Shown piece by piece: positions 36,853 through 64,000 of a DNA stretch of 64,000 nt. The stretch comes from a virus. The number at the start of each line of letters is the position of its first letter. Position 1 is the first letter of the stretch. Below the pieces are notes generated by a model. It saw only the letters and a list, made by a program, of their open reading frames with translations, was not told where the DNA came from and did not search any database. The stretch is from IMG/VR virus record IMGVR_UViG_3300010231_000003, positions 1-64,000 of that record, one strand, 5' to 3'. The translations under genes were made by a program, and so were the position numbers.

Positions 36853-36864
36853 GAAAGGAAGAAG

Positions 36865-38662: not shown

Positions 38663-38694
38663 ACGTACTTCTTAACCGACCAAGGAGAAATACA

Positions 38695-39018: not shown

Positions 39019-39040
39019 TTAACCAACCAAGGAGAAATAT

Positions 39041-40297: not shown

Positions 40298-40325
40298 TCT
40301 ACTTCCTACGTTTCTTACTAGCTTC

Positions 40326-40550
40326 TTGAACATCGGGCTGCGTTCGTTCCAGCAGCTCAATGTGATACACAAGAAGTACTGGTGGATTCTGCCGACGAGC
40401 ATGGTGATGGCTGTATGTGAGGCTATCATCCTGCTTAACGTGGTCCACAACGGAATGGGGCTGGTTGTTCTGGCAATCGGCCTCGGTGGCGGGCTTGGTA
40501 GCATTACGTCTACCTTCCTGCATAGCAAGCTACACAAGGAGAAGAAATGA
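40326..40550 (+). CDS. small membrane protein (start uncertain)
   Basis: Hydrophobic 74-aa frame. Has a TTG start at 40326 or an ATG at 40401. Confidence 0.45.
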   Translation: MNIGLRSFQQLNVIHKKYWWILPTSMVMAVCEAIILLNVVHNGMGLVVLAIGLGGGLGSITSTFLHSKLHKEKK

Positions 40551-40870
40551 CTACGTTTAAAGTTGGCGACAAAATTCGTTGCATCGACGGAAAAGGCGCA
40601 GCAAAAGGTATCAAGGAAGGCGAGACTTACGAGGTTGAACGCGACGACGCGAGCGGCCTGCAAATTGTTGGCGTTTACTCGGCTGGCGGGCACTGGCGCC
40701 CGCGTTTCGAACTCGCGAAGCCTGAAGTGAAGGTAACGGTTCGAACCAAGGAACAGGTATGGGCCGACCGTACGAAGGAACTGCTGGATGGCATTGTAGC
40801 CACGCACACAGCGGGCCAAGAGATTCCGCGTGAGTGGATCGAAGAACTGTACTTCAGCAGCGCACGGTAA
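40547..40870 (+). CDS. hypothetical protein
   Basis: 107 aa, RBS acaaggagaagaa. Confidence 0.65.
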   Translation: MTTFKVGDKIRCIDGKGAAKGIKEGETYEVERDDASGLQIVGVYSAGGHWRPRFELAKPEVKVTVRTKEQVWADRTKELLDGIVATHTAGQEIPREWIEELYFSSAR

Positions 40871-40876
40871 CAACAA

Positions 40877-40905
40877 GCCGCCCTCCGGGGCGGTTTTTCT
40901 TTTTG
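40877..40905 (+). terminator. rho-independent terminator
   Basis: GCCGCCC-tccg-GGGCGGT followed by TTTTTCTTTTT. Confidence 0.75.
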
Positions 40906-40913
40906 TGAAGGGG

Positions 40914-40942
40914 TTGCATTCGTAGTGCTACCTACGTATAAT
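40914..40942 (+). promoter_or_regulatory. sigma70-type promoter
   Basis: TTGCAT-tcgtagtgctacctacg(17)-TATAAT. Confidence 0.65.
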
Positions 40943-40967
40943 GGCTGAATTCAACAACGGAGTGCAT

Positions 40968-41495
40968 ATGAAACCCCTTAAAGCTAGAGTTAGTAAATGT
41001 TCATACGGGTCGTACACGGCCAGCCTCAGTAACAGGCCAGTAGCGACGTACCACGACGAGTCAGACGCGGCGGACTGGCTCCAATACATGCTATCTAACG
41101 GATGTGTCATTTCACAACACTCGTGTGTGAAACCTTCTGGTGCTATGCCAACAGGTTACAAAGCAGAACGCTGCGAGAGAGATTTGAAGATCGGAACGGA
41201 GTGGAAGGCTAACCATCCAGCTAGGGGTATCACTCCTGAACAATACCGGGAGAATTGTCAAATTTCACGTATCAGAGCCAGAGTCGAGGCCGAAGACAAG
41301 CAAGCCGGCGAGCAACGACTGAAAGATGCTGGTTGGAATGACACAGTAGAAATGCTCAGGGTTCTGCTCGGGTACAACGACGAAACAAACCCATACTCAA
41401 TGGATAAATTCAACGAAGACCTAGCCAAGTTGCGGGCGAAACGGAATCAGATCGCAGCGGGAACAGCTTGCGTAGGTAGCGCTTCTTCCATATAA
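40968..41495 (+). CDS. hypothetical protein
   Basis: Start at ATG 40968 (MKPLKARVSK..). 175 aa, visibly AT-richer than its neighbours. Confidence 0.6.
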   Translation: MKPLKARVSKCSYGSYTASLSNRPVATYHDESDAADWLQYMLSNGCVISQHSCVKPSGAMPTGYKAERCERDLKIGTEWKANHPARGITPEQYRENCQISRIRARVEAEDKQAGEQRLKDAGWNDTVEMLRVLLGYNDETNPYSMDKFNEDLAKLRAKRNQIAAGTACVGSASSI

Positions 41496-41525: not shown

Positions 41526-43190
41526 ATGAAACCTACCGAACAACAACTGAACTGCATCGCTGCTGCAATCAAGCACATGATCGTGAAGATCGAGGCAGGC
41601 GCAGGCAGTGGTAAGACCAGTACGCTCAAGCTCGTGTCCGAAGAGCTGGACCAATCGTCCCTATACATCGCCTTCAACAAGGTGACTGCTACGGAAGCAT
41701 CCGAGAAGTTCCCGAGCCACGTGACGTGCAAGACCACTCACAGTCTCGCATTCGCCAAGTTCGGCCGTGCGCTGATGGACAAGCTGAACCGTCCGAAGGG
41801 TGGCTACGTCAACGTCGCCTTCACTGGCACGGAAATCGCCCGCTTCTACAAGATCGGCTGCATCATGGACATGCAACTGGGAACGCTCGCTACCACTGAA
41901 AACGCTATCGGCCTGTTCGTGCGTCAAACTGTGGAACGCTTCGAGCAATCCGCAGACACGGAAATCACGGAAAACCATCTGCCGCGATTCGACATGAAGA
42001 AGACGCTGGATGCCGATCCCTCGTCCGGAGCCTACGTCCTTCGTCTCGCAAAGCGTCTGTGGCAGGATCGTATCGATCCGGGTAGCCCTGTGCTGGCAAC
42101 GCACGATACGTACCTGAAGCAGTTCCAGCTCAGCAAACCGCGTCTGCCGTACAACATCATCTATCTGGACGAAGCGCAGGATAGCACGCCTTGCGTACTG
42201 GACATCGTGATGACGCAAGCGCAGAAGGGTGCGAAGATCATCCTCGTGGGCGACCGCCGACAGGCAATCTACGGATGGCGTGGTGCGATCAACGCCATGA
42301 CCCGTATCGAAGGCCACAGCGAGTTCCTGACGAAGAGCTTCCGCTTCGGCCAAGGCGTGGCTGACGTTGCTACCGCTGTCCTGCAAGGTCTGATGAAGCT
42401 GACGGGCCGGGATGACATGCCCTCGACTATCGGCCGTGGCGTGGTGGATCGTACGAAGCCTTACATGTACCTGTTCCGTACGAACTCGGGTCTGCTGTAC
42501 GCTGCTGTGGCTGCAATTTCGAAGGGCGAGAACATCCGTCTCGAAATCGACGTGAAAGACTTCCTCCGCCTGCTGGAGTCGGCGTACGCGCTGTCTAAGG
42601 GCGACATGCGGAACGTCAAGCACGAGAACATCCTTCCGTACCCGACGTGGCAAGAGTACAAGGAAGAGGCGGAGAAGATGACTGGCGAGATGAAGCGCAT
42701 CGTCAACATCATCGAAGGCGGTGACTACTTCCGCTTCGTACGTACGTTGGAAGGGTTCCATAACCCGGCTAACGCTCCAATCGTGTACACTACGGCCCAC
42801 AAGTCGAAGGGTCGTGAGCACGATCAGGTGTTGCTGGCGGATGATTTCCCAAGCCACTACGACGGCGGTGATTGGGTAGGACTGAACGAGATGGAACAGA
42901 ACCTTCTGTACGTCGCTGTTACCCGTGCAATGCGTGTGCTGGAAATCAACGATTCGGTGCAGGAAGCGCTGGACTACTACGCAGACGGTCCTGAGCATCT
43001 GGACTCCGGCGAGCTGGAGTACCACAAGATCGCAGCAGCGTACGACAACGGCGACCTCGATCACGAAGATGACCGTGCTGCGTACGAGCACTACGTTGTC
43101 AACGGGGACAAGCCAAGGCTCATGCCTAGCCCTGATTTGCGGAGGGAGCTTCGGGACATGCAACGTGACTACGATTGGCAAGGGCTGTAA
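41526..43190 (+). CDS. UvrD/Rep-like superfamily 1 DNA helicase
   Basis: Walker A EAGAGSGKTST, YLDEAQD, GDRRQAIYGWRGA, TAHKSKGREHD motifs. 554 aa. Confidence 0.85.
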   Translation: MKPTEQQLNCIAAAIKHMIVKIEAGAGSGKTSTLKLVSEELDQSSLYIAFNKVTATEASEKFPSHVTCKTTHSLAFAKFGRALMDKLNRPKGGYVNVAFTGTEIARFYKIGCIMDMQLGTLATTENAIGLFVRQTVERFEQSADTEITENHLPRFDMKKTLDADPSSGAYVLRLAKRLWQDRIDPGSPVLATHDTYLKQFQLSKPRLPYNIIYLDEAQDSTPCVLDIVMTQAQKGAKIILVGDRRQAIYGWRGAINAMTRIEGHSEFLTKSFRFGQGVADVATAVLQGLMKLTGRDDMPSTIGRGVVDRTKPYMYLFRTNSGLLYAAVAAISKGENIRLEIDVKDFLRLLESAYALSKGDMRNVKHENILPYPTWQEYKEEAEKMTGEMKRIVNIIEGGDYFRFVRTLEGFHNPANAPIVYTTAHKSKGREHDQVLLADDFPSHYDGGDWVGLNEMEQNLLYVAVTRAMRVLEINDSVQEALDYYADGPEHLDSGELEYHKIAAAYDNGDLDHEDDRAAYEHYVVNGDKPRLMPSPDLRRELRDMQRDYDWQGL

Positions 43191-46625: not shown

Positions 46626-46657
46626 CTTACCTGTCGCAACCAACCAAGGAGAAAGAA

Positions 46658-50273: not shown

Positions 50274-50349
50274 GGGTCGTTAGCTCAGCGGATAGAGCAC
50301 GGGATTTCTACTCCCGGTGTCGTAGGTTTGAATCCTACACGACCTACCA
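50274..50349 (+). tRNA. tRNA-Arg(UCU)
   Basis: GGGTCGT TA GCTC AGCGGATA GAGC A CGGGA TTTCTAC TCCCG GTGTC GTAGG TTTGAAT CCTAC ACGACCT A CCA. Confidence 0.9.
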
Positions 50350-51873: not shown

Positions 51874-52857
51874 ATGACAGAACTACCAAAATTGGTGTGC
51901 ATCGACGGTGATATTCTGTCCTATCGTGCTGCTGCGGCGAATGAGAAACGCTTCGTACGCTGCACTCACATGGAGACAGCGGAAACGGTGGAGTTCGACA
52001 CGCTGACCAAGTTCCGTGAATGGGCAGGGGACAGCAAGGATGAGTACGAGGTTGTACCGGGGCAGAAGTCCGGCCCGTTGCAGAACGCGTTCCACATCCT
52101 GAACCACATGATCGACAACATCGTGAAGGCGTGCAAGGCAGAGAGCTACCACATCGTTGTGAGCGGGGACAACAACTTCCGCCTCGACCTTCCGTTGCCG
52201 ACACGCTACAAGGACGCCCGTAAGGAAAGCACGAAACCGTTGCAATTGGCCGACTGCAAGAACTACCTCATCAACTCGCACTCAGCGGAAATCAGCGATG
52301 GCGTGGAAGCGGACGATGTACTCGTTGCTTACATGACTGCTGGACACACGCAAGCGTCGATTGATAAGGACGCCAACCACGGACCGGGGCACTTGTACAA
52401 CTGGGACAACATGACGGAGCCTGAGTTCATCAGTGGCTTCGGAGAGCTGACCCTGATCGTCAAGGAGAACCCGAACGGGACCAAGACGAAGAGCGCCAAG
52501 GGTAAGGGACGTGTGTGGTTGTACTACCAGATGGTCTTCGGGGACGCTGTGGACTGCTACAAGCCCTGTGAGCTTGCGAAAGTGAAGTTCGGAGAGGTAG
52601 GAGCGTACGAACTGCTACATCGCTGCAAGACGGATAAAGAGGCTCTGGAGGCTGTTGCCAAGCAGTATCAGATTTGGTATCCTAAACCGATTACCTACCG
52701 TGCGTGGGATGGATCGCTACAGGAGAACAAATCGTGGCTGGACATCTGGCAACTCTATGCGGACTGTGCGTTCATGCGCCGCTGGGAAGGTGACAGGTTT
52801 GACGTACGGAAGGTACTGAAGAAGGCGGGGATCGAGTATGGCGACACGGAAGAGTAA
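51874..52857 (+). CDS. 5'-3' exonuclease (T7 gp6-like, PIN/FEN fold)
   Basis: CIDGDIL, VEADDVL and SIDKD acidic motifs spaced as in the T7 gene 6 exonuclease. 327 aa. Confidence 0.55.
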   Translation: MTELPKLVCIDGDILSYRAAAANEKRFVRCTHMETAETVEFDTLTKFREWAGDSKDEYEVVPGQKSGPLQNAFHILNHMIDNIVKACKAESYHIVVSGDNNFRLDLPLPTRYKDARKESTKPLQLADCKNYLINSHSAEISDGVEADDVLVAYMTAGHTQASIDKDANHGPGHLYNWDNMTEPEFISGFGELTLIVKENPNGTKTKSAKGKGRVWLYYQMVFGDAVDCYKPCELAKVKFGEVGAYELLHRCKTDKEALEAVAKQYQIWYPKPITYRAWDGSLQENKSWLDIWQLYADCAFMRRWEGDRFDVRKVLKKAGIEYGDTEE

Positions 52858-53398
52858 GGAGTCCCCGAAGACCCGTTGTAGCGGGACGATGACGGAGGCT
52901 CAGTACCTAGCGTGGATTCGTTCTGCGCTTCGTTCCAAGTGGCTTCGTTGGCAACCCCGGAATGACTGCCTTGCCGCAGCTCGCCGCCCTTACAAGGGGC
53001 CGAAGAAGCAGCAGAAGTGGGAATACCAGTGTGCCATTTGTAAGGAGTGGTTCATACTGAAAGTGATGGAGGTTGACCACTACCCGCACGATGCTGGAGC
53101 GATCCTGACCGTAGAAGACATCGGCCCGTTCGTTGGACGACTCTACTGCGAGACGGACAACCTGCGTGCGTTGTGCAAACCGTGCCACAGCATCTACACG
53201 TACTCCCAGAGCGAGGGAATTTCGTTCGAAGAGGCAAGGTTCGCTAAGAAGGTATTGGAGATTACGAGACAGCCGGTGAAACAGGTACTTGCGTTCCTAA
53301 TGCAGTACGGATATACTGGTAGCTCGGTAAGTAACGATACCAAGCGGAAGGAGCTAGTCACCAAAATTTTGAAGGAGCAACATGAGCAACACGATTGA
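52838..53398 (+). CDS. HNH/NinG-like nuclease domain protein
   Basis: CAICK..EVDHYPH..NLRALCKPCH motif. 186 aa. Confidence 0.5.
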   Translation: MATRKSKESPKTRCSGTMTEAQYLAWIRSALRSKWLRWQPRNDCLAAARRPYKGPKKQQKWEYQCAICKEWFILKVMEVDHYPHDAGAILTVEDIGPFVGRLYCETDNLRALCKPCHSIYTYSQSEGISFEEARFAKKVLEITRQPVKQVLAFLMQYGYTGSSVSNDTKRKELVTKILKEQHEQHD

Positions 53399-54221
53399 AT
53401 GGACCGTCCTCGCGGTCAAGCTGGACGAGGCGAAGATGAGCTGGCGAGAAATCGCGGAGATGCTTGGCAAGCCTAAGAGCACGGTGAGTGATTTCCTTCG
53501 CTCGTACCACGCTCAAAAGGCGATGGCGGCAGGTAACGACGGCTACGACAACAGCCGTATCCTGTTCATCTCGGACCAGCACATCCCGTACCATCACGAA
53601 CAGATGTTCGACTTCCTCGAATACCTGAAGCGTAAGTACGACCCGACACGAGTTGTCAACGTCGGGGACGAGCTTGACAAACACGCGATGAGCTACCATG
53701 ACCATGACCCGGACCTTCCGAGTGCTGGTGATGAGCTGGAGCGAGCCCTACCGCACGTCAAGCGTATGGAAACGATGTTCCCTAACATGGACATCATCGA
53801 GTCGAACCACGGCTCCCTACACTTGCGTAAGGCGAAGAGCCACGGCTTTTCGAAGCGTTACATCCGTAGCTACAACGAAATCCTCGAAGTGGGAGATGGC
53901 TGGAAGTGGCACAACGATCTGACGCTGGACATGAGCAAGTGGAACCGACCAGACGTTTATGTTCACCACGGGAAGACGAAACGTGCTATCATGACGAGTA
54001 AGGCTATGTCGATGTCGCATGTATGCGGACACTACCACGAATCGTTCGGTATCGAATACTGGGCGAATCCGAAAGGTCTGTACTTCGGCATGAACGTAGG
54101 CTGTCTAATCGATGACCGAAAACTGGCGTTCGCTTACAATAAAATAAACCCTCATCGCCCAATTATCGGCACAGGGCTTATCATTGAAGGTGAACCGATT
54201 CTAGAAGCGATGAAGCTGTGA
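53382..54221 (+). CDS. calcineurin-like metallophosphoesterase with an N-terminal HTH
   Basis: ISDQHIPYHH, VGDELD, SNHGS, HHGKT and GHYHE motifs. N-terminus SWREIAEMLGKPKSTVSDFLR. Confidence 0.8.
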   Translation: MSNTIEWTVLAVKLDEAKMSWREIAEMLGKPKSTVSDFLRSYHAQKAMAAGNDGYDNSRILFISDQHIPYHHEQMFDFLEYLKRKYDPTRVVNVGDELDKHAMSYHDHDPDLPSAGDELERALPHVKRMETMFPNMDIIESNHGSLHLRKAKSHGFSKRYIRSYNEILEVGDGWKWHNDLTLDMSKWNRPDVYVHHGKTKRAIMTSKAMSMSHVCGHYHESFGIEYWANPKGLYFGMNVGCLIDDRKLAFAYNKINPHRPIIGTGLIIEGEPILEAMKL

Positions 54222-54766
54222 TTAAATGGGACGACTGGTATTACTATGATGAAACCAGCCCGTCCTGTTTGAGATGGGCTGTGAACAGGTACAAGGGAAG
54301 AGGGCACGCAATACTTCTTATTGCAAAGGATGCTGTAGCAGGCTCGTTTGACACATCCAGAGGTAGCGGGTACTATGTAGTGTTCCTGCATAAGAAGGGC
54401 TACACCGCTCACAGAGTAATCTGGGAGATGCACAACGGTCCAATACCTGACGACCTAATGATCGACCATATAAACGGCGACAGCAGTGATAACAGGTTGC
54501 CTAATTTGCGGCTGGTGACGAAGAGGGTGAATGCAAGGAACCAGAAAAAGCGGTCTTGCAACACAAGCGGCGTCACAGGCGTAAGTAAGACGACCAAGGA
54601 CGGGAACGACTACTGGATAGCGTTCTGGACCGATGACAAGGGAAAAGGTCAACGGAAGTCGTTCAACTGCTGCATCGGTGAACGGGCTGCGTTTACGCTG
54701 GCCTGCGAATACAGAGCAAGAATGATCGCAACACACGAGGGCTATACCGAACGGCATGGCCTATAA
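54218..54766 (+). CDS. HNH_3 plus AP2-domain homing endonuclease
   Basis: IDHINGDSSDNRLPNLRLVTKRVNARN followed by SGVTGVSKT..YWIAFW (AP2-like). GTG start. Confidence 0.8.
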   Translation: MIKWDDWYYYDETSPSCLRWAVNRYKGRGHAILLIAKDAVAGSFDTSRGSGYYVVFLHKKGYTAHRVIWEMHNGPIPDDLMIDHINGDSSDNRLPNLRLVTKRVNARNQKKRSCNTSGVTGVSKTTKDGNDYWIAFWTDDKGKGQRKSFNCCIGERAAFTLACEYRARMIATHEGYTERHGL

Positions 54767-54797
54767 GTAGCACTACTAACTAACCAAGGAGAAAATT

Positions 54798-55031
54798 ATG
54801 ACTACCTATGACGTACGCAATCAAAGCTGTGATGAAATCACTGTCCTCCGAATCGCTGACCGGGACAGCAACACGTATATCGCGGAGCTGGTCATCCCTT
54901 CGAACGGAGCCGGGATCAAGATTTACGACTCGCAAGACACCGGCCACTCCGTTGTGGTCAAGACGAAAGAGCATGCGGCCAACCTCCGCAAAGCTTTGGA
55001 CAAGGCTGAGCAAATGGGCTGGCTGAAATAA
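54798..55031 (+). CDS. hypothetical protein, tandem paralogue 1
   Basis: 77 aa ending KEHAANLRKALDKAEQMGWLK. Leader ctaactaaccaaggagaaaatt. Confidence 0.7.
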   Translation: MTTYDVRNQSCDEITVLRIADRDSNTYIAELVIPSNGAGIKIYDSQDTGHSVVVKTKEHAANLRKALDKAEQMGWLK

Positions 55032-55050
55032 CACTACCAAGGAGAAAATT

Positions 55051-55278
55051 ATGAGCACTATCGATGTACGTGGCGATCTGACCAACGTGTCCGAAATCCG
55101 CTTCGCAGACAAAGACGCGTTTGACTACTGCCCGGACGTGATTCGTGGCGGCGAACGCCGTCAAACTCTGCTGGTCGAGACGGACTCCGACCGTGAACTG
55201 GTCATTAAGGACAAGGAGCACGCTGAAAACCTCATCAAAGCCCTGAACAAAGCAATCGAGCTGGGCTGGCTGAAATGA
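55051..55278 (+). CDS. hypothetical protein, tandem paralogue 2
   Basis: 75 aa ending KEHAENLIKALNKAIELGWLK, with the same RBS. Confidence 0.7.
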   Translation: MSTIDVRGDLTNVSEIRFADKDAFDYCPDVIRGGERRQTLLVETDSDRELVIKDKEHAENLIKALNKAIELGWLK

Positions 55279-55553
55279 GCAACCTGACCTTTCTGGAAGT
55301 TCCGATTGCGAACACCGGACTGGTCCTAGTGCTTCTTTCCAACGGGCTGCTGATGATGGAACGTAGCCCGTTCTTCACCCCGATGTACGATCACTTTCCA
55401 GAGGGCGTATCGGGCGTGTTCAACGTTTCGAGCTTCAGCTTGCTCGACGGGGAAGGACGCTGGACTGAGTACGACTACGGTGTGGCGTACGCTTACAAAG
55501 AAATGCCAATGCTGAAAGCATGGCTGATTCAACAAAAACTGCAACTAGCATAA
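55275..55553 (+). CDS. hypothetical protein
   Basis: 92 aa, ATGA coupling to the upstream gene. Confidence 0.55.
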   Translation: MSNLTFLEVPIANTGLVLVLLSNGLLMMERSPFFTPMYDHFPEGVSGVFNVSSFSLLDGEGRWTEYDYGVAYAYKEMPMLKAWLIQQKLQLA

Positions 55554-55564
55554 GGAGTATTACC

Positions 55565-55939
55565 ATGAGTATCAAACACGACATCAACGCAGCAGTAGAC
55601 GCATGCCACAAAGCTTCGACGGACGCAGGCTGGTGGAATGACAAGGAAGGCAACCATCTCACGCTGAACCCGTTCGCCTTCTCCAACAAACTCGCCCTCG
55701 TGCATAGCGAGCTGTCGGAAGCGCTGGAAGCAGACCGCAAAGACCTGATGGACGACAAGCTGCCACAGTTCCACGGCCGTGCTACGGAGCTGGCTGACGC
55801 AGTGATCCGTATCTTCGATCTGGCCGGTGCGTACAACATCCCGCTGGGCGATGCAATCGAAGCAAAGATGGCGTTCAATGCCGTTCGCCCGGACCACAAG
55901 AAAGAAGCACGCGAAGCTGCTGGTGGCAAGTCGTACTAA
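55565..55939 (+). CDS. mazG: MazG-like nucleoside triphosphate pyrophosphohydrolase
   Basis: Start at ATG 55565. LVHSELSEALEADRK..ELADAVIRIFDLA motif pattern. 124 aa. Confidence 0.7.
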   Translation: MSIKHDINAAVDACHKASTDAGWWNDKEGNHLTLNPFAFSNKLALVHSELSEALEADRKDLMDDKLPQFHGRATELADAVIRIFDLAGAYNIPLGDAIEAKMAFNAVRPDHKKEAREAAGGKSY

Positions 55940-55948
55940 GGAGGCAAC

Positions 55949-56509
55949 ATGAAAACTATTAGCGTCACTGACCTGATGGCGAAGGTGGATGAGCTGTCCC
56001 ATCTTCGTATGATCGACTTCCCCGATCCGAAGAACGACGCTCTGATTGCTCCGTACCTGAAGGTGCTGGGCTTCGATCTGGACTACCCTATTCAGTACAT
56101 TCCGTGTCAACATCGGAACCTGCAAGGGCAAGTCGTTATCGCGTATTTGATCGCCGGGGAAGTAGATATCAATTCGAACTTCCTGAACAGTTCGTTCGCT
56201 ACGCCGGAAGACCGGCTCATCGCCGCTGGCTACAAGGACATGAGCCTTGCCAACGAAATGTCTCGCTCGTTGTCCACGAGCCGAGATTACAACAGCGGCG
56301 TGGTCGAAGGTTTCCCAGCGGAATTGACGAACCCGGACGAGAAGGCTATCATCGAACAGATCGAAGTGCTACAAAACCTGCTGGATGTGGTACGACCGAA
56401 TCGGTTCAGCGATGGTGGCCGTCTGAAGACGATGGCAGAGTACCATGCCCCGCCCGTCGTCATCGTCAAGAAGGATCGCAGGAAGCGTTCCGTCAAGATT
56501 GATAAGTAA
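55949..56509 (+). CDS. hypothetical protein
   Basis: 186 aa, RBS taaggaggcaac. Confidence 0.65.
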   Translation: MKTISVTDLMAKVDELSHLRMIDFPDPKNDALIAPYLKVLGFDLDYPIQYIPCQHRNLQGQVVIAYLIAGEVDINSNFLNSSFATPEDRLIAAGYKDMSLANEMSRSLSTSRDYNSGVVEGFPAELTNPDEKAIIEQIEVLQNLLDVVRPNRFSDGGRLKTMAEYHAPPVVIVKKDRRKRSVKIDK

Positions 56510-56527
56510 GGCTACCTGTGCTATAAT
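56499..56527 (+). promoter_or_regulatory. sigma70-type promoter upstream of the RNR gene
   Basis: TTGATA-N17-TATAAT. Confidence 0.6.
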
Positions 56528-56540
56528 GTCTGCCTGACAC

Positions 56541-56566
56541 GCGGAGGCTTCGGCCTCCGTTTTCAT
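56541..56566 (+). terminator. terminator or attenuator hairpin between the promoter and the RNR gene
   Basis: GCGGAGGC-ttcg-GCCTCCGT followed by TTTC. Confidence 0.55.
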
Positions 56567-56590
56567 TCAACTAACATAAGGAAATAGAAA

Positions 56591-58453
56591 TTGGACATCT
56601 CCCAGAAAATTCTCAGTGACGTAGTGGTCTTTAACAAATACGCGAAATACATCCCAGAAGCAGGACGCCGGGAGACGTGGGAAGAGATTTGCGACCGCAA
56701 CGCAGAGATGCACATGAAGCGCTACCCGCATATGGCACAAGAGATTGCCTATGTGTTCGACCGTTACGTCAAGCCGAAGAAAGTGCTGCCATCGATGCGT
56801 TCGATGCAGTTCGGTGGTAAGCCTATCGAAATGAACAACACGCGCATGTTCAACTGCTGCTGCCTGCCAATCGACAGCCTGCATGCGTTCTCCGAGACGA
56901 TGTTCCTGTTGCTGGGTGGTAGCGGTGTCGGCTACAGCGTCCAGAAGCATCACGTCGATCAACTGCCTGTTGTGCAGGGTCCGAAGGCTACGCGTCGTCG
57001 CTTCGTCGTCGGTGACAGCATCGAAGGATGGGCTGACGCAGTGAAGGTGGTTGTGCGTGCCTACTTCGAAGGCCGTGCTGACCCGGACATGGACTACGGT
57101 GATATCCGTCCGAAGGGTGCTCGTCTGATTACGGCCGGTGGTAAGGCTCCGGGACCGGAACCGCTGCGTATCTGTATCGAACAAATCCGTCACGTATTGA
57201 ACGGTGCTATCGGTCGTAAGCTGACGCCGCTGGAATGCCATGACATCGAGTGCCACATTGCTGACGCTGTGCTGTCCGGTGGCATCCGTCGTGCTGCAAT
57301 GATCGCGTTCTTCAGCCCGGACGATCTGGACATGATTACGTGCAAGAGCGGCCCGTGGTGGGAGCTGAATCCGCAGCGTGGTCGTGCTAACAACTCGGTG
57401 GTGCTGCTGCGTGGTACGGTGGACGAAGAAACGTTCAAAGCCATCTGGAAGCTTGTCGAGATTTCGAACGCTGGTGAACCGGGTGTGTACTGGACGAACG
57501 ACCGTAATATCCTGAGCAATCCGTGTGTCGAGGCAACGCTGCGTATGTACTCGTTCTGTAACCTGACGACGATCAACGGCGATGACGTAGAGACTCAGGA
57601 AGAACTGAACAAGCGTGCAGAAGTCGCTACGTTCATCGGTACGCTGCAAGCTGGCTATACCAACTTCCACTACCTCCGTCCGCAATGGCGTGAAGTGACG
57701 GAAGACGACGCTCTGATCGGTGTTTCGTGCACTGGTACGGGCTCGGGCAAGGCATTGCCGTTGAACTGGGAAGAAGCAGCCCGTTGCGTGGTTGCAGAGA
57801 ACGCACGTGTTGCCGCCCTGATCGGTATCAACACTGCCGCTCGTACGTCGCTGATGAAGCCGGAAGGCACTGCGTCCATCGTCGTTGGTTCGTCCTCGGG
57901 CGTCCACGCATGGCACAATGACTACTACATCCGTCGTATGCGTGTCGGTAAGAACGAAGCCCTGTATGCGTACATGGTCAAGAACTTCCCGCTGCTGGTC
58001 GAGGACTGCAAGTTCAAGCCTCATCTGGAAGCTGTGATGTCGTTCCCGCAGAAGGCTCCTGAAGGGTCGATCCTGCGTACGGAAAGCTTCATGGACCTGC
58101 TGGAGCGTGTGCGTCGCTTCAATCAGGAATGGATCAAGCCGGGACACAACCGTGGCGTGCAGCGTCACAACATCTCGTGCACGATCAGCCTGAAAGCTGA
58201 CGAGTGGGATGCATGCGGACAGTGGATGTGGGACCACAGGGACGAATACAACGGTATCAGCGTTCTTCCGTACGACGGTGGCACCTACGTTCAGGCTCCG
58301 TTCGAAGACTGCACCAAGGACGTGTACGAGGGTCTGATGGGCTACATCGAAGCACAGGGTTCGTTCGATCTGACACAGGTGAACGAGGAAGAAGACAACA
58401 CGGCACACACGATGGAAGCTGCGTGTGCTGGCGGAGCGTGCGAGGTTAAGTAA
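56591..58453 (+). CDS. nrdJ: class II (B12-dependent type) ribonucleotide reductase
   Basis: NPCVEA..FCNLTTIN active-site region, C-terminal CAGGAC cysteine pair. 620 aa single chain, TTG start after aaggaaatagaaa. Confidence 0.8.
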   Translation: MDISQKILSDVVVFNKYAKYIPEAGRRETWEEICDRNAEMHMKRYPHMAQEIAYVFDRYVKPKKVLPSMRSMQFGGKPIEMNNTRMFNCCCLPIDSLHAFSETMFLLLGGSGVGYSVQKHHVDQLPVVQGPKATRRRFVVGDSIEGWADAVKVVVRAYFEGRADPDMDYGDIRPKGARLITAGGKAPGPEPLRICIEQIRHVLNGAIGRKLTPLECHDIECHIADAVLSGGIRRAAMIAFFSPDDLDMITCKSGPWWELNPQRGRANNSVVLLRGTVDEETFKAIWKLVEISNAGEPGVYWTNDRNILSNPCVEATLRMYSFCNLTTINGDDVETQEELNKRAEVATFIGTLQAGYTNFHYLRPQWREVTEDDALIGVSCTGTGSGKALPLNWEEAARCVVAENARVAALIGINTAARTSLMKPEGTASIVVGSSSGVHAWHNDYYIRRMRVGKNEALYAYMVKNFPLLVEDCKFKPHLEAVMSFPQKAPEGSILRTESFMDLLERVRRFNQEWIKPGHNRGVQRHNISCTISLKADEWDACGQWMWDHRDEYNGISVLPYDGGTYVQAPFEDCTKDVYEGLMGYIEAQGSFDLTQVNEEEDNTAHTMEAACAGGACEVK

Positions 58454-58656
58454 TGGCAAGGGTGACGGTGGAGCTGATCTGGAATGACAGCTTCCCGCCA
58501 CTCAACCTGTACAACCATCCCAGTCACGGGGTCGTGGACGTATGGGCAGAGGCGGTGAAGCTCGGGTGCATCCACGTACCCGACCACATCAAACGAACAA
58601 TTTTGTATGGAGTAAACAACAATGGAACAGAACCACTTGACGGTGTTTTCAAGTAA
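58453..58656 (+). CDS. hypothetical small protein
   Basis: 67 aa, ATG overlaps the nrdJ stop. Confidence 0.5.
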   Translation: MARVTVELIWNDSFPPLNLYNHPSHGVVDVWAEAVKLGCIHVPDHIKRTILYGVNNNGTEPLDGVFK

Positions 58657-58882
58657 CGGGTGTGCTGGATGTAAGGCTGTCATCCAACACTTCGAACGGC
58701 TGAACATCCGCCACAAGGTCGTGAAGATCGATGAGGACGAACAAGGCATGCACGCGTTCAAGACGCTGGGGCATCGTACTGTCCCTCAGATTTACAACGA
58801 GAACATCGAACTGCTGGGTAGCTCGCTGATGGATATCCTGAAGCTGCCGACTGGCACGTTGGATTTCTACAAAGCAGCTTGA
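58622..58882 (+). CDS. NrdH/glutaredoxin-like redoxin
   Basis: CAGC redox motif near the N-terminus, then ..TVPQIY.. 86 aa, next to the RNR gene. Confidence 0.75.
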   Translation: MEQNHLTVFSSNGCAGCKAVIQHFERLNIRHKVVKIDEDEQGMHAFKTLGHRTVPQIYNENIELLGSSLMDILKLPTGTLDFYKAA

Positions 58883-58907
58883 CAGCTACGTAAGGCTACG
58901 TTACGAT
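58879..58907 (+). promoter_or_regulatory. sigma70-type promoter
   Basis: TTGACA-gctacgtaaggctacgt(17)-TACGAT, followed by the CA-rich leader. Confidence 0.65.
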
Positions 58908-58939
58908 GTAGCCTTTCTTACCAACCAAAGGAGAATGAA

Positions 58940-59347
58940 ATGACCAAACAACCAAAGATCGGTGCACGCTTCGTCTACGCTGATGTCAGCACTGTCACGG
59001 ACTGCACCGTTGGCAAGATTTACACAATCGAGCGCTATCGCCCGAACTCCGGCAACGCACAGTTCCGGGATGACGTGGGCGACTGGAATAGCGGTGCTGC
59101 AACGGGTGGTATGGGTCGCCCGGTATTCCTCGTCGGAGACTACGTGCCCCTGAAGGACATCGAAGGGAACGACGTTATCGAGGGTGACATCATCGCTTAC
59201 GCATTCGCTGGTGCACAGAGCCGTCATCTGGCTCTGTTCGAAGTCGTTGAAATCAACGGCCCGGTGGCCCTGTGCCGTGCTAAGGCGGACGGTGCTGTCA
59301 TCAATCTCGGCGTGTTCGAAGAGCGTGCCATCAAAATCAACAAGTAA
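58940..59347 (+). CDS. hypothetical protein
   Basis: 135 aa. Confidence 0.65.
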   Translation: MTKQPKIGARFVYADVSTVTDCTVGKIYTIERYRPNSGNAQFRDDVGDWNSGAATGGMGRPVFLVGDYVPLKDIEGNDVIEGDIIAYAFAGAQSRHLALFEVVEINGPVALCRAKADGAVINLGVFEERAIKINK

Positions 59348-59360
59348 CACTACTTGACAG

Positions 59361-59397
59361 GCTGGTGTGGCTTCGGCTACACTGGCCTTTTCTTTTA
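59361..59397 (+). terminator. rho-independent terminator (overlaps a TTGACA-N18-TACACT promoter-like site)
   Basis: GGCTGGTGTGGC-ttcg-GCTACACTGGCC, with G-U pairs on the plus strand, followed by TTTTCTTTT. Confidence 0.65.
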
Positions 59398-59409
59398 CCG
59401 GAGATAGAA

Positions 59410-59658
59410 ATGACCCGTATGATTATCGACCTCGAAGCAAACCCGTTCGGTATGAACGGTGGTATCAACGCTGGCGAGCTTGCGATCTTTGTAGTGAAGC
59501 CAAACGACATCAAATCGAAAGTGCCGGAAGTTCACATCCTGAAGCAGCGGCCGGGACCGTACGAATTCGCTCTGCACCCTCGATTCCTGTTCAGCGAGAC
59601 GCCGGAGCAACGGGCCAAACGTGAACTCGGCTTCCCGATTGAAGGAGTGGAGCCATGA
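59410..59658 (+). CDS. hypothetical protein
   Basis: Start at ATG 59410 (MTRMIIDLEANPFG..). 82 aa. Confidence 0.55.
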   Translation: MTRMIIDLEANPFGMNGGINAGELAIFVVKPNDIKSKVPEVHILKQRPGPYEFALHPRFLFSETPEQRAKRELGFPIEGVEP

Positions 59659-59852
59659 AACGGAACTCCCCGGAGTGGAAAAGGATGATAGGCCACAGGC
59701 AACTGAATGATGACGGGTTTACGTACCCGTACGGCCGGTTCCCGTTTAACTACAACACAAGGTCTGCCAGTATTAAACGGCAGATTCGAAGCGACAAACG
59801 CGCTGTTCGTCAAGCTGAAACGCGCAGACTGGAAAAGGAGGAAGAACAATGA
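59655..59852 (+). CDS. hypothetical basic small protein
   Basis: 65 aa, ATGA coupling to the upstream gene. Confidence 0.5.
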   Translation: MKRNSPEWKRMIGHRQLNDDGFTYPYGRFPFNYNTRSASIKRQIRSDKRAVRQAETRRLEKEEEQ

Positions 59853-60283
59853 ACAAGATCGATTCGTTCAGGGGCGAGCATCGCTTCCTGTCTAACTTCT
59901 GGAACGTCTACGTGACCTATGACAGCGTTACGTACCCAACCGTAGAGCATGCCTACCAAGCTGCGAAGACGCTGGAGCCGGAGTTCCGTAGGGCTATCTG
60001 CTACGCTACGACAGGCGATGCGAAGCGTATGGGCCGTCAGGTTCCGATGCGCCCGGACTGGGAGACGGCTAAACTCGGCATCATGGACGGCCTGCTGCGT
60101 CAGAAGTTCAGTGACCCGGAGCTGGCGGAACGGTTGCTGGCTACGGGCGATGCCGAACTCATCGAAGGTAACACGTGGGGCGACTACTACTGGGGCGTAT
60201 GCAACGGGGAGGGTCAAAACTGGCTGGGTAAGCTGCTGATGGCTATCCGGGAAGACATTCGCAATTACGGAGGAACGAAGTGA
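59849..60283 (+). CDS. NADAR (YbiA/DUF1768) family protein
   Basis: GEHRFLSNFW..YPTVEHAYQAAK..GNTWGDYYWG signature. 144 aa. Confidence 0.85.
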   Translation: MNKIDSFRGEHRFLSNFWNVYVTYDSVTYPTVEHAYQAAKTLEPEFRRAICYATTGDAKRMGRQVPMRPDWETAKLGIMDGLLRQKFSDPELAERLLATGDAELIEGNTWGDYYWGVCNGEGQNWLGKLLMAIREDIRNYGGTK

Positions 60284-60765
60284 AGCTCGTCATCGCAGGA
60301 AGCCGGAGCATCCGGGACTATAACGTCACGCGTCAGGCCATCATCGAATCCGGCCTCTGGGCCAAGTACGGCAAGAAGATTCACGTCATCTCTGGCGAAG
60401 CCGAAGGCCCGGACAAACACGGGGAAATCTTCGCTGAAAAGGCGGGACTGAAGCTTACGAAGAAGCCCGCTGACTGGGGCAACGTGAAAGCACGTGGGGC
60501 AGTGGTACGTCACAACAGTCGTGGGCCGTACAACGCTCTGGCGGGCCACTGGCGTAACGAAGAGATGGCACAGATGGCCGATGCCGCTCTGATTGTGTGG
60601 GACGGTCGTAGCACTGGCTCCCTCGATATGCTGCACCGTATGATCGCTCTGGACAAGCCTGCGTACTTGTTCCCGCTGCGTATCGACGCTGACGCATTGG
60701 ACCGGCTGCAAGACAAGTGCGAAATTATTTTTCCAAATAGCTTGACTGAGCGTAAGAAACTGTAG
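60280..60765 (+). CDS. SLOG-superfamily (DUF2493-like) protein
   Basis: KLVIAGSRSIRDY..VISGEAEGPDKHGE pattern. GTG start. 161 aa. Confidence 0.5.
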   Translation: MKLVIAGSRSIRDYNVTRQAIIESGLWAKYGKKIHVISGEAEGPDKHGEIFAEKAGLKLTKKPADWGNVKARGAVVRHNSRGPYNALAGHWRNEEMAQMADAALIVWDGRSTGSLDMLHRMIALDKPAYLFPLRIDADALDRLQDKCEIIFPNSLTERKKL

Positions 60766-60770
60766 ATAAT
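60742..60770 (+). promoter_or_regulatory. sigma70-type promoter
   Basis: TTGACT-N17-GATAAT. Confidence 0.55.
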
Positions 60771-60818
60771 ACTACCTATCGCAACCAAGCCCGTCAGGGC
60801 AAACCAAAGGAGAACGAA

Positions 60819-61142
60819 ATGAATACCGCAGATATCCTGAAAGCAGCGAAAGCAAAGATCGCTAACCCCGCCAACTGGATGCAGGGCTTTTACGCTCGTG
60901 ACATCAACGGCAATGAGCTGATCGGTAACGAACCGGGAGCTGTATGCTTCTGCGCTATCGGCGCTATCGAGTCCGTGCAGGGCATCGAACATCACGGGAA
61001 CGGCTGGGCTGAACGTCCTGTCGAGCTGCTGTGCGAAGCTGCAAACCAGCAGATCGCTATCTACAACGACGGTCACACGCACGAAGAAGTGCTGGCTGTG
61101 TACGACAAGGCCATCGCTGCCGCTGAGAAAGAAAGTGCTTGA
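60819..61142 (+). CDS. hypothetical protein
   Basis: 107 aa, leader aaaccaaaggagaacgaa. Confidence 0.65.
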   Translation: MNTADILKAAKAKIANPANWMQGFYARDINGNELIGNEPGAVCFCAIGAIESVQGIEHHGNGWAERPVELLCEAANQQIAIYNDGHTHEEVLAVYDKAIAAAEKESA

Positions 61143-61276
61143 CCCGGACGACGTTTATGAGCTACGATGTGAAGTACGTAGCAAGCACAACAAGCGTTGC
61201 CAATGCGACGTAGAATGGGGCACATGCCCCGGACCAACCAACTGCCTGTATTCGGGCTATGAACAAGGAGAAGATA

Positions 61277-61708
61277 ATGAGTATCACTTCCAATCTGGAA
61301 ACCCTGCTGGCGGCAGTTGAAGCACAGCCGGAAGATAATTTCGACCTGAGCCACTTCCGGCAGGATACCGCTTGCGGTACAAACTTCTGTACCCTCGGCC
61401 TCGCCTGTACCATGCCGAAATTTCGGGAGATGGGCTTCAGCCTGCGCGAAGAGTTGAATACCTTCGCACCAAGCGGTTTCTCCTATCACGCACAGGTCAA
61501 CGGCCTCTCCGCTATGTGGGGTAACAGGACGGATTTCGCCTTTGGTACGAACTCGTACGAGCGCCTGTTCGAACCTGCGGATGACGGCAATCTGGACGAA
61601 GAACTTGGTTATGAGTTCGACTACGATACGGACACAGCCAACATGTCGGACAAAGAGCTGGCTATCGCACGCCTGAAGAAACAAATCGAACTGATGAAAG
61701 GGGAATAA
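61277..61708 (+). CDS. hypothetical protein
   Basis: Start at ATG 61277 (MSITSNLETLL..) after acaaggagaagataa. Confidence 0.6.
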   Translation: MSITSNLETLLAAVEAQPEDNFDLSHFRQDTACGTNFCTLGLACTMPKFREMGFSLREELNTFAPSGFSYHAQVNGLSAMWGNRTDFAFGTNSYERLFEPADDGNLDEELGYEFDYDTDTANMSDKELAIARLKKQIELMKGE

Positions 61709-61710
61709 CA

Positions 61711-61911
61711 ATGAGCCGCAACCAACGTGAAGGTAAATTCGTTCCGGGCTGGTGCCTCAATCCGAACATGGTGAAGGACAAGAATGGCGTCTACCGTCAC
61801 GGCGTCCGTGCTGGCAAGTACGCTGACCTGAAGGGCGTCCGTAACGCTTTCGATGGCTACACTACCGTCCCCGGCCTGACCTTCATCCGCTCGCTGCGTG
61901 TGGGAGTGTAA
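61711..61911 (+). CDS. hypothetical small protein
   Basis: 66 aa, RBS aaaggggaataaca. Confidence 0.55.
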   Translation: MSRNQREGKFVPGWCLNPNMVKDKNGVYRHGVRAGKYADLKGVRNAFDGYTTVPGLTFIRSLRVGV

Positions 61912-61912
61912 G

Positions 61913-62743
61913 ATGAGTGTGTATCTCGACACCTTTGCCAAGGACGTAACGAAGACTACCTTCCCCGGTGGCGAGTCGTGCATCCGCATCAATCCGGAAT
62001 CGTTCCGTGGCGTACCGGGCTACGAAGCCGTGGTCGTGCTGGAGTTCGAAAGCAACAGCGATCTGTTCGATCTGGCTCTGCTGGTGGACGCCTACCGGCG
62101 TATCGTTCCGGGCGGGAAGCTGATCTTGCGTATGCCGTACGTACCGTACGCTCGCCAAGACCGCGTGTGCAACCCCGGCGAAAGCCTGTCGATCAAGGTC
62201 GTGGCAGACTTCATCAACGCGCTGAAGTTCGAAATGGTCGTTATATTCGATCCGCACTCGGACGTAGCAACTGCCCTGTTCGATAACGTGTCAGTGATCC
62301 CGCAGGAGTGGTATGCTGTGACCGTCGCCCGTCGCTGGGGCGATCCAAGTAACGCTATCGTGGTAGCCCCGGACACGGGCGCTTCGAAGAAGGCTTTCAA
62401 GTTCTTCCAGAAGGGTCAGTTCGGCGGGTTCGTAAAAGCGGACAAGGTGCGTGATCCGTTGAGCGGTAAGATCGTGGCTACGAGCGTGGCAGGCATTCCA
62501 CACATCGGTGATAAAGACTTCCTGATCGTGGACGACATCTGCGATGGTGGCCGTACGTTCACTGAACTGGCGAAAGTGCTGCGTCCACTGACGAACGGTA
62601 ACATCGTACTGTACACTACGCACGGCATTTACAGCTACGGCACGGAAGTGTTTGACAACCTGATCGATGCTGTGTACACTGTGAATCCTGTCGGGCCGAA
62701 AGCGAGAGACGCAATCGCATCCGGCAAGGTAATCAAGCTATAA
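61913..62743 (+). CDS. ribose-phosphate pyrophosphokinase (Prs) homologue; candidate ADPR-pyrophosphate synthetase of a NARP1-type pathway
   Basis: FDPHSD, VAPDTGASKKA and PRPP loop LIVDDICDGGRTF. Start at ATG 61913. 276 aa, shorter than cellular Prs. Confidence 0.8.
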   Translation: MSVYLDTFAKDVTKTTFPGGESCIRINPESFRGVPGYEAVVVLEFESNSDLFDLALLVDAYRRIVPGGKLILRMPYVPYARQDRVCNPGESLSIKVVADFINALKFEMVVIFDPHSDVATALFDNVSVIPQEWYAVTVARRWGDPSNAIVVAPDTGASKKAFKFFQKGQFGGFVKADKVRDPLSGKIVATSVAGIPHIGDKDFLIVDDICDGGRTFTELAKVLRPLTNGNIVLYTTHGIYSYGTEVFDNLIDAVYTVNPVGPKARDAIASGKVIKL

Positions 62744-62793
62744 GAACCACTCGCTACGTAGGTGGCGAGAAACTACCAACCAAGGAGAAAACA

Positions 62794-64000
62794 ATGAAAG
62801 TCAAACCACACCTGATCCTCGATTCGTACAAACTGGGCCACATCGATCAGTACCCGGAAGGCACGCAGTACGTGTATTCCAACCTGACGGCACGTTCGGC
62901 TGGTCATGCCAAGATGGGCAAGCTGTACGATAACAAGGTTGTGTTCGTCGGCCTGCAAGGCTTCGTGAAAGAATTCCTGATCGAAGTATGGGACGAATAC
63001 TTCTTCAAGCGCCCGAAGGACGAAGTGATTGCTGAATACAAGCGCCGCTGCGACAACTTCCTCGGCCCGGATACCGTTCGTACCGACCACATCGCCGCTC
63101 TGCACGATCTGGGCTACCTGCCCATCGTCATCAAGGCGCTGCCGGAAGGTTCCCGTGTGGACATCAAGGTTCCGTTCCTGACGATTCGTAACACGCTGCC
63201 GCAATTCTTCTGGCTGACGAACTATCTGGAAACGGTGTTGTCGGACGAACTCTGGCAACAAATCACGGTAGCGACCACTACGTACGAATATCGTCGCATC
63301 CTGAACAAGTATGTGGAACTCACCGGCTCCGACATCGACTTTGCCGATTGGCAGATTCACGACTTCTCGATGCGTGGTATGGTCGGCTGGCACGGTGCAG
63401 CCAAGGGCGGTGCTGCTCACCTGTTCATCTCGCGTGGTACGGATACGCTCCCGGCTATCGACTATCTGGAAGAGTACTACAACGCGGACGTGACGAAGGA
63501 ACTGGTCGCTGGCTCCGTGCCTGCTACCGAACACTCGGTCATGTGCATGGGCGGTCAAGGGCTGCTGGGCGAAGAAGAGCTGGCTACGTTCCGTCGTCTC
63601 ATCACGAAGGTGTATCCGGGCGGTATCGTATCCATCGTATCGGATACGTGGGACTTCTGGCGTGTCATCACGGTGTACGCTCGTGAGCTGAAGGACGAGA
63701 TTCTGGCTCGCAAGGTGAACGCTCTGGGCCAAGCCAAGGTCGTGTTCCGTCCTGACTCGGGTGATCCGGTCAAGATCATCACTGGCCTGACGGTGTACGA
63801 GCTGACGGGTGAGCGTTGGGACGACTGTGATGCACTGGCGTATGGTGGGTACGATGTGGTCAAGCAGGATGGGAAGTTCTATACGTTCAACGTCACCTAC
63901 TACCCAGACGGTAGCCCACGCGACTTCCGCGTCAACAAGGACGTAGAGGTGCCTGAGCACGAAGTCAAAGGTGCTGTGGAATGCCTGTACGACATCTTCG
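62794..64000 (+). CDS. nicotinamide phosphoribosyltransferase (Nampt) family protein; C-terminus lies outside the window
   Basis: Open frame from ATG 62794 after actaccaaccaaggagaaaaca. LILDSYKLGHIDQYPEG.., HDFSMRGM, GTDTLPAID and ATEHSVM motifs. The long minus-strand ORF 62773-63960 is a shadow. Confidence 0.85.
   Translation, partial: MKVKPHLILDSYKLGHIDQYPEGTQYVYSNLTARSAGHAKMGKLYDNKVVFVGLQGFVKEFLIEVWDEYFFKRPKDEVIAEYKRRCDNFLGPDTVRTDHIAALHDLGYLPIVIKALPEGSRVDIKVPFLTIRNTLPQFFWLTNYLETVLSDELWQQITVATTTYEYRRILNKYVELTGSDIDFADWQIHDFSMRGMVGWHGAAKGGAAHLFISRGTDTLPAIDYLEEYYNADVTKELVAGSVPATEHSVMCMGGQGLLGEEELATFRRLITKVYPGGIVSIVSDTWDFWRVITVYARELKDEILARKVNALGQAKVVFRPDSGDPVKIITGLTVYELTGERWDDCDALAYGGYDVVKQDGKFYTFNVTYYPDGSPRDFRVNKDVEVPEHEVKGAVECLYDIF

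Follow-up and report, generated by a model that had tools for sequence, protein, structure and literature searches.

Positions 61,913 to 64,000 of a 64,000-nucleotide (nt) viral stretch (IMG/VR record IMGVR_UViG_3300010231_000003, positions 1 to 64,000; hereafter the window) hold two adjacent genes, the first for a Prs-like and the second for a Nampt-like protein. We consider it very likely from their sequences that the pair is an NAD+ reconstitution pathway 1 (NARP1) module, composed of Adps and Namat, and a divergent member of that group carried by an uncultured phage of ~90 kb. The pathway itself is already known. It is reported in 4.3% of sequenced phages and counters SIR2, TIR and SEFIR effectors (10.1101/2024.02.11.579819); what is new is this divergent module. 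A sequence-only reading of the window had proposed the NARP1 architecture, and both the distinctive marks and the clade placement of the two proteins favour that proposal. Seen directly are the order of the genes, their intact active sites, the family-specific marks, the clade membership, and the failure to find a gene for an NMN (nicotinamide mononucleotide) adenylyltransferase (NMNAT) or a Nudix protein in 87% of the genome.

The module would act on the products of a host defence effector of the SIR2, TIR or SEFIR type, which would split NAD+, leaving ADP-ribose (ADPR) together with nicotinamide. The Adps-like enzyme would then take the beta-gamma pyrophosphate from ATP and attach it to ADPR at the 1'' hydroxyl, giving ADPR-PP and AMP, and the Namat-like enzyme would swap nicotinamide for the pyrophosphate of ADPR-PP, yielding NAD+ directly. 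In such a scheme, NAD+ would be made with neither an NMN intermediate nor an NMNAT. We infer the substrates, the products and the anti-defence role by analogy with the characterised homologues of SPbetaL1, Bas63, ICP1 and FADO.

The gene for the Prs homologue lies on the + strand at 61913..62743, with an ATG at 61913, and its open reading frame (ORF) translates to the 276 amino acids (aa) given by the sequence-only reading; the gene call of the source contig (JGI) is an identical 276-aa protein. A GGGAG Shine-Dalgarno element precedes the ATG, and an in-frame GTG at 61898 would run into the upstream ORF. From the adps stop, which ends at 62743, a spacer of exactly 50 nt (62744..62793, + strand) leads to the namat ATG at 62794, as that reading had also described. 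The first 402 of the 550 codons of the namat-like gene fall in the window (62794..64000, + strand), where the ORF is still open, and another 446 nt lie beyond it; read from JGI metagenome contig Ga0136217_1000101 (90,576 bp), the full gene encodes 550 aa and ends at window-equivalent 64446. The end coordinate 64000 is therefore the edge of the window and not the end of the gene. The contig can stand in for the window here, as its locus L001 corresponds to window positions 51913-64000 with 12,088 of 12,088 nt identical.

The first protein belongs to the Prs family by its profile matches (PF13793, E = 5e-9; TIGR01251, 1.5e-33; phrog_619, 3e-76) and by those to Prs chains in the PDB (E down to 3e-17). 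It misses the canonical Prs cut-offs, scoring 54-95 bits against NCBIfam Prs equivalog models with cut-offs of 296-536, and the sole pass is that of the broad subfamily model TIGR01251 (116 bits, cut-off 113). Against phrog_619 it scores 257 bits, where known Adps score 230-306 and Escherichia coli Prs scores 193, and phrog_12872, a family of fused Adps-Namat proteins, is matched by Adps types and not by E. coli Prs. We aligned the protein with the Adps of SPbetaL1, ICP1, Menlow and arall, an Acinetobacter homologue and E. coli Prs. Adps is reported to retain the acceptor surface and catalytic lysine of Prs, while its PP loop is remodelled and conserved among Adps, and it consistently lacks the C-terminal alpha11-alpha12 module, a loss described as a defining signature (PMC13586617). 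The window protein has an Adps-type PP loop, DDICDGGRTF (aa 207-216; 62531..62560, + strand), which is the same in the Adps of Klebsiella phage Menlow and Escherichia phage arall, and which reads DDICDGAASF in ICP1 and DDMIDTGGTL in E. coli Prs; this comparison was made against reference sequences, since PMC13586617 states no explicit consensus. The exact motif is found in 100 of the 120 closest database homologues, all of them 245-303 aa long. What had been called an intact PRPP (phosphoribosyl pyrophosphate)/ribose-phosphate loop in the sequence-only reading is thus present, but in the Adps version, which is reported to bind the ATP-derived pyrophosphate donor (PMC13586617).

Lys178 (62444..62446, + strand) stands in an invariant alignment column as the counterpart of the catalytic lysine K185 of ICP1 Adps, where the K185A substitution abolishes ADPR-PP formation (PMC13586617). 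Counterparts of ICP1 R87, H121, D161, K185, D212, D213 and D216 are all present; because Prs has the conserved lysine and acceptor residues too, they speak for an intact enzyme and not for its specificity. The protein is without the N-terminal Prs helix, and its alignment stops ~25 residues short of the E. coli Prs C-terminus, the region of alpha11-alpha12. Within the Adps clade, 97% of members have a Namat homologue in the immediate vicinity (Osterman et al., 10.1101/2024.02.11.579819), and here the Namat-like ORF begins 50 nt 3' of the Adps-like one. In a neighbour-joining (NJ) tree (Kimura distances, 200 bootstrap replicates, small sample, as for all NJ trees here), 11 Namat-linked Prs-like proteins, the window protein included, form a clade against E. 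coli and Sulfolobus Prs with 92% bootstrap support. The 276-aa protein is accordingly placed with Adps, and pyrophosphorylation of ADPR is its predicted activity.

The second protein matches PF04095 (1.7e-13), PF18127 (1.9e-8) and phrog_448 (3e-133), in keeping with its earlier assignment to the Nampt family. Its best solved relatives are 9W5X/9W5W (E = 1.5e-149, 502 bits), identified as SPbetaL1 Namat via PMC12774641, with human Nampt at 6e-59 (203 bits) and Xanthomonas Nampt at 8e-55 (190 bits). Namat has been described as a conserved Nampt core to which an adenine 'selectivity clamp' is added (PMC12774641). In the core that binds nicotinamide and ribose, 10 of 10 checked residues are kept (SPbetaL1 D13, Y15, F189, R192, D215, A242, R306, D308, G360 and D361), and His247, in PATEHSV (63532..63534, + strand), corresponds in alignments with SPbetaL1 Namat and human Nampt to the catalytic histidine that is phosphorylated in Nampt (for its role, PMC12774641). 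The SCH adenine-clamp motif, at aa 453-463, is GSFTYQYITRD, in which positions 3 and 7 are F and Y; its codons begin 150 nt past the edge of the window, and we took the motif from the identical contig. It is one substitution from that of SPbetaL1 (GSFTYQYNTRD), while KVP40-type and human Nampt have GGGLLQ... there. The other part of the clamp, the region of the selectivity-clamp loop (SCL), is RSAGHAKMGKLYDN (aa 34-47; 62893..62934, + strand), aligned to SPbetaL1 residues 37-46; SCL is described as variable, with a rule that the third residue is Arg, Lys or Tyr and supplies the adenine-stacking residue (PMC12774641).

An NJ tree splits the Adps-linked Namat clade, with the window protein in it, from NARP2-type and human Nampt with 100% bootstrap support; the protein is 43-61% identical to members of its clade and 31-33% identical to NARP2-type and human Nampt. 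Likewise, tblastn against 50,697 phage records returned two groups of matches, one at ~37-54% identity and one at 34% or less. The profile and phylogenetic comparison that had been proposed as a check on the NARP1 assignment therefore came out in its favour, with 502 bits to SPbetaL1 Namat against 203 to human Nampt, the Adps clade at 92% and the Namat split at 100%. The second-best structural relative, PDB 9KE8/9KEO, is entitled 'nicotinamide phosphoribosyltransferase', and its chain clusters with SPbetaL1 and GH15 Namat (97% bootstrap) and has an SCH of GAQTYQRNTRD, in which neither position 3 nor position 7 is aromatic; no phage source for this chain came up by tblastn (best 55%, Bacillus phages), and no paper on it in a literature search.

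The protein also carries a 55-aa insertion with respect to SPbetaL1 Namat (aa 332-386; 63787..63951, + strand), between RPDSGDPVKIITG and PEHEVKGAVECL, where the phmmer match splits. We rejected the insertion as a novelty, as the Namats of the cultured phages Menlow, arall, PAK_P2 and phiA8-29, and those of three metagenomic relatives, have insertions of 53-66 aa at that site.

No NMNAT is visible before the window ends, as had been noted, and inspection of the sequence downstream of 64000, proposed earlier as a check, found no NMNAT or Nudix gene in the 79.1 of 90.6 kb covered by Pfam calls and tblastn. The precomputed Pfam calls for genes in this part (87%) include no cytidylyltransferase-like or Nudix family, and tblastn with the Acinetobacter NadM/Nudix protein and a Shewanella phage nucleotidyltransferase gave nothing below E = 3. 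The namat-like gene is followed by ORFs of 85 aa, 455 aa (phrog_26613, a family annotated as of unknown function) and 157 aa, the last with a macrodomain, then by several small ORFs, and after these by lysis and tail genes on the other strand. NARP2 is recognised by an NMNAT in a phage that has no Adps; this phage has Adps, and NMNAT was not found in the portion searched.

Among characterised systems, the NARP1 of Bacillus phage SPbetaL1 (10.1101/2024.02.11.579819; PMC12774641) has the same gene order, adps then namat. Its Namat is 47% identical in a tblastn alignment that covers 99% of the query (53% if counted over retained alignment columns), with the same catalytic residues and a near-identical SCH, and its Adps, 272 aa against 276 here, shares the truncations and the catalytic lysine. 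However, the Adps proteins are only 33% identical over 201 aa, and the SPbetaL1 PP loop is DDLSSFGGTF in place of DDICDGGRTF. Namat is 59 aa longer here because of the 55-aa insertion; its SCL exceeds that of SPbetaL1 by 5 residues, with Gly in the place of the adenine-stacking Arg40; and the two genes, which abut in SPbetaL1, are here separated by 50 nt. The NARP1 of Vibrio phage ICP1 (NrsA/NrsB; PMC13586617) has in common with the window pair a PP loop of the form DDICDG..(S/T)F, the catalytic and acceptor counterparts and the loss of alpha11-alpha12; its Namat has an SCH of GSYTYQYVTRD, and identities over retained columns are ~33% for Adps and 51% for Namat. The differences are that its adenine contacts Phe92 and Phe223 are Cys and Glu here, and that its Namat is without the insertion.

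A further group is that of the long-form NARP1 modules of Menlow, arall, Pseudomonas phage PAK_P2 and Aeromonas phage phiA8-29, whose Namat proteins of 544-577 aa have an insertion of 53-61 aa at the same site, whose PP loop is identical in Menlow and arall, and whose genes are adjacent, with one small ORF between them in PAK_P2. Their identity to the window proteins is 32-40% for Adps and 43-56% for Namat, and at the third SCL position the long-form phages have Lys, where the present lineage has Gly, Ala or Thr with a conserved His after it. With NARP2, the KVP40-type combination of Nampt and NMNAT, the module shares the Nampt superfamily fold, the catalytic residues and the purpose of restoring NAD+ during infection. 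In contrast, the NARP2-type Nampt proteins of Vibrio phage 6E35.1a and phage phT4A are only 31% identical to the window protein and fall in a separate clade (100% bootstrap), the aromatic clamp is replaced in them by GGGLLQ, and NARP2 phages carry an NMNAT and are without Adps.

The pair is kept in three related contigs of ~86-92 kb (L012, L013 and L014), at 53-65% identity for Adps and 70-80% for Namat. Their order is Adps, zero to two small ORFs, Namat, a small ORF and a ~460-aa ORF in either order, and a macrodomain ORF. Published marks, namely the Adps PP loop, the C-terminal truncation and the Namat SCH, can classify such pairs from sequence alone, and the module described here is a divergent addition to NARP1 that comes from a phage lineage not yet in culture.

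Shewanella phage 1/40 (L016 901-4057) has the order nucleotidyltransferase, Prs-like, Nampt-like. Its Nampt sits at the base of the Namat clade at 35% identity, with a divergent SCH that has an extra residue (GSYANLQNNTRD), and its Prs-like protein pairs with the Adps of Barba19A (100% bootstrap); this set may be an intermediate or a three-enzyme variant.

Several points weigh against reading the pair as NARP1. The trees, built by NJ, are small, include few cellular outgroups and do not resolve the order of branching within their clades. The Adps is 25-40% identical to characterised or cultured-phage Adps and at most ~43% identical to anything in the phage genome collection (for Namat, the maximum is ~54%). 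ICP1 Phe92, which contacts the adenine, is Cys here, although it is Ser in the active SPbetaL1 enzyme. The SCL loop, RSAGHAKMG..., has Gly37 at the third position, outside the Arg/Lys/Tyr rule, and for this reason the SCL half of the adenine clamp is only putative; the SCL alignment is itself uncertain, because the loop is 5 residues longer than that of SPbetaL1. His38, at the fourth SCL position, is conserved in the three relatives and, judging by the alignment, could stack on the adenine in place of Arg, Lys or Tyr. In this lineage, then, the SCL half of the Namat adenine clamp seems to depart from the rule. The search for NMNAT and Nudix genes took in all but 11.5 kb of the genome (contig 29925-41382, between tail genes). 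Lastly, the same marks occur in an Acinetobacter chromosomal prs-nadV cluster, after which a NadM/Nudix gene comes next.

In the phage collection, the Namat-like protein has its closest match in that cluster (prs-like, nadV and nadM-Nudix; L008 4099-7316), at 54% identity by tblastn and 61% over retained columns. The record of the cluster, CAKLQF020000015.1, is named 'Acinetobacter phage MD-2021a', and we rejected it as a phage; it is a contig of a bacterial chromosome that also encodes an ABC transporter, fepC and an AraC regulator. The prs-like gene lies directly upstream of nadV, the SCH is GSFTYNYLTRD and the PP loop, DDICDGGATF, is of the Adps type. Differing from the phage module, the cluster has housekeeping surroundings, its NadV is without the insertion, and its third gene is annotated as a bifunctional NMN adenylyltransferase/ADP-ribose pyrophosphatase, a counterpart of which was not found in the searched part of this phage. 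Because the Acinetobacter genes share the marks, the marks by themselves are compatible with a role in ordinary salvage and are no proof of an anti-defence one. A prs-nadV-nadM cluster with 'phage-specific' marks bears on how well the marks predict function; neither it nor the SCL departure changes the standing of NAD+ reconstitution as a common phage counter-defence.

It could be hypothesized, then, that the pair serves classical salvage, NARP2-like or of the Acinetobacter prs-nadV-nadM type, in which the Prs-like enzyme would form PRPP out of ribose-5-phosphate, the Nampt-like enzyme would combine PRPP with nicotinamide to NMN, and a phage or host NMN adenylyltransferase would complete NAD+. 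Pfam and NCBIfam do label the proteins Prs and Nampt/NAPRTase, Namat enzymes can form NMN from PRPP in vitro if ADPR-PP is absent (10.1101/2024.02.11.579819; PMC12774641), the closest match in the phage collection is a bacterial chromosomal nadV between prs-like and NadM/Nudix genes, and NadD or NadR could come from the host. We nonetheless regard this route as quite improbable. A search of 87% of the genome turned up neither an NMNAT nor a Nudix gene, and the Nampt-like protein has the SCH adenine clamp and sits in the Adps-linked clade, separated with full bootstrap support from the NARP2-type Nampt proteins to which it is only 31% identical. Its partner has the Adps PP loop and truncations and falls below every Prs equivalog cut-off. 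The experimental precedents point the same way, as SPbetaL1 Adps gave no measurable product in a canonical Prs assay and Bas63 NARP1 functions in a host without pncC and nadR (10.1101/2024.02.11.579819). A further alternative, that the genes are decayed or repurposed, either as a relic with no NAD+ role or as a source of a different nucleotide product, we find scarcely credible. Nothing specific favours it, and the SCL deviation and the 55-aa insertion mark divergence of the lineage; both reading frames are intact with every checked catalytic residue kept, both genes are retained in the relatives at the identities given above, and the insertion is common to the Namat homologues of Menlow, arall, PAK_P2 and phiA8-29. 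NARP1 is thus the reading that we prefer for the pair.

An extension of NARP1, and no replacement for it, would be NARP1-AP, in which a macrodomain protein acts with the pair by dephosphorylating ADPR-1''-phosphate (from RES-type defences) to ADPR, so that the module would also defeat aRES. The third gene 3' of namat, the 157-aa macrodomain ORF (L001 14273-14746, window-equivalent 66185-66658, past the window), hints at such a candidate Adpp by its profile matches: PF01661 (5.7e-4), phrog_335 'phosphatase' (5.8e-34) and PDB 5E3B (2.6e-7). The ORF holds the same relative position in the three related contigs, at 44-69% identity, and is 36% identical over 88 aa to a macrodomain protein of Rheinheimera phage Barba19A encoded directly upstream of Adps; a Macro phosphatase is associated with 15% of NARP1 phages (10.64898/2026.01.28.702374). 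However, being the third gene, it lies beyond the two-gene criterion of the same study (10.64898/2026.01.28.702374), and it has a promoter-like site of its own, TTGACA-17-TACAAT (11 of 12 matches). Its Pfam score is 20.3 bits against a cut-off of 22, and its match to the Poa1p-type ADPR-1''-phosphatase is weak (E = 0.017) compared with that to the DarG macrodomain (1.8e-7); the ORF resembles DarG-type and SCO6735-type macrodomains more closely than it does Poa1p. Its conserved position could also be mere synteny of the lineage. We therefore hold the NARP1-AP extension to be possible but doubtful.

Upstream, a NADAR-domain ORF of 144 aa (59849-60283, + strand; PF08719, 1.1e-24) and a SLOG/YAcAr-like ORF of 161 aa (60280-60765, + strand; PF10686, 2.8e-5, below the cut-off; phrog_289) overlap by 4 nt and lie 1.1-2 kb 5' of adps in the same strand array; the NADAR/YAcAr pair is also upstream of Adps in the related contig L014 and not in L012 or L013. 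A bolder and rather unlikely proposal would make NARP1 the core of a larger ADP-ribose-centred counter-defence block with the NADAR, SLOG, 85-aa, ~460-aa and macrodomain ORFs. Here, free ADPR would be supplied by the macrodomain and NADAR enzymes, acting on ADPR-1''-phosphate or on ADP-ribosylated DNA, for Adps and Namat to convert into NAD+, and the adenine clamp would be a His-based variant without the usual Arg, Lys or Tyr. If true, this would be a displaced and expanded NARP1-AP that joins the reversal of ADP-ribosylation to the recovery of NAD+.

The expression signals of the NARP1 pair itself begin with a 66-aa ORF (61711..61911, + strand; from the ORF list and sequence), which has no Pfam or PHROG match and whose stop codon ends 1 nt before the adps ATG, a spacing that suggests translational coupling of the two. 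The namat gene has its own strong ribosome-binding leader, CTACCAACCAAGGAGAAAAC, within the 50-nt spacer (62773-62792, + strand), with AAGGAG 6 nt 5' of the namat ATG. The leader, described as strong and CA-rich in the sequence-only reading, lives up to that description, as the + strand of the window has 5 CTACCAACCAAGGAGAAAAC-like sites against 0.01 expected. The copies are at 10194-10213, 30142-30161, 32484-32503, 46637-46656 and 62773-62792, all on the + strand, with a recurrent consensus of CAACCAACCAAGGAGA(A/G)(A/G)AC, and are probably a shared strong translation-initiation region. An ATG follows within 0-1 nt in 4 of the 5, and the copy at 10194 has no ATG, with a TTG four nt downstream. 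By the same token, the copy at 30142 would place the start codon of its gene at 30162, later than the called start.

The pair sits in one long + strand gene array 3' of a strong intrinsic-terminator-like hairpin (59359-59388, + strand; 13-bp stem with 7 G-C pairs, T-run), which overlaps a promoter-like site (59354-59383). This hairpin/promoter-like site (~59354-59388) may mark the start of a transcription unit with NADAR, SLOG, adps and namat; the operon structure of the array is what we infer from this layout. The 50-nt spacer also contains a small hairpin; it lacks a T-run, and the terminator scan did not report it. We also rejected an internal promoter at the 3' end of adps (62652-62680), since the number of sites found, 6 against 3.0 +/- 1.8 expected, is at chance level. 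In a PADLOC scan, the sole match for Adps was PsyrT (16 bits, over the PP loop), and neither Adps nor Namat had a meaningful match.

The window maps to contig Ga0136217_1000101 with two different offsets on either side of ~42820-42918, and it lacks the 99 nt with which the contig record begins; because of the two offsets, we read the window as a rotated version of a genome of ~90.5 kb that is circular or terminally redundant. Megablast of 61700-64000 against phage genomes gave zero matches, and the locus is thus without a close cultured relative among them. The terminase is 42% identical to that of ~88-kb Pseudomonas phages such as vB_PaeM_G1, which points to a distant kinship with these phages.

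Elsewhere in the window, a 620-aa ORF (56591-58453, + strand) has no precomputed Pfam match on record but strongly matches phrog_367, ribonucleotide reductase (1.6e-118); at its position the related contig L012 has a classical two-subunit ribonucleotide reductase. A cluster of 20 tRNA genes lies at 6789-9778 on the - strand, with a separate tRNA-Arg(tct) at 50274-50349 (+ strand). Precomputed Pfam matches also identify likely counter-defence or repair genes, namely a resolvase (12709-13377), an HD_4 protein (13592-14215), RtcB (14667-15875), ArdA (21128-21613, - strand), a DNA ligase (30883-32244) and an RNA ligase (33079-34239), of which RtcB and the RNA ligase, by occurring together, suggest a tRNA repair function.

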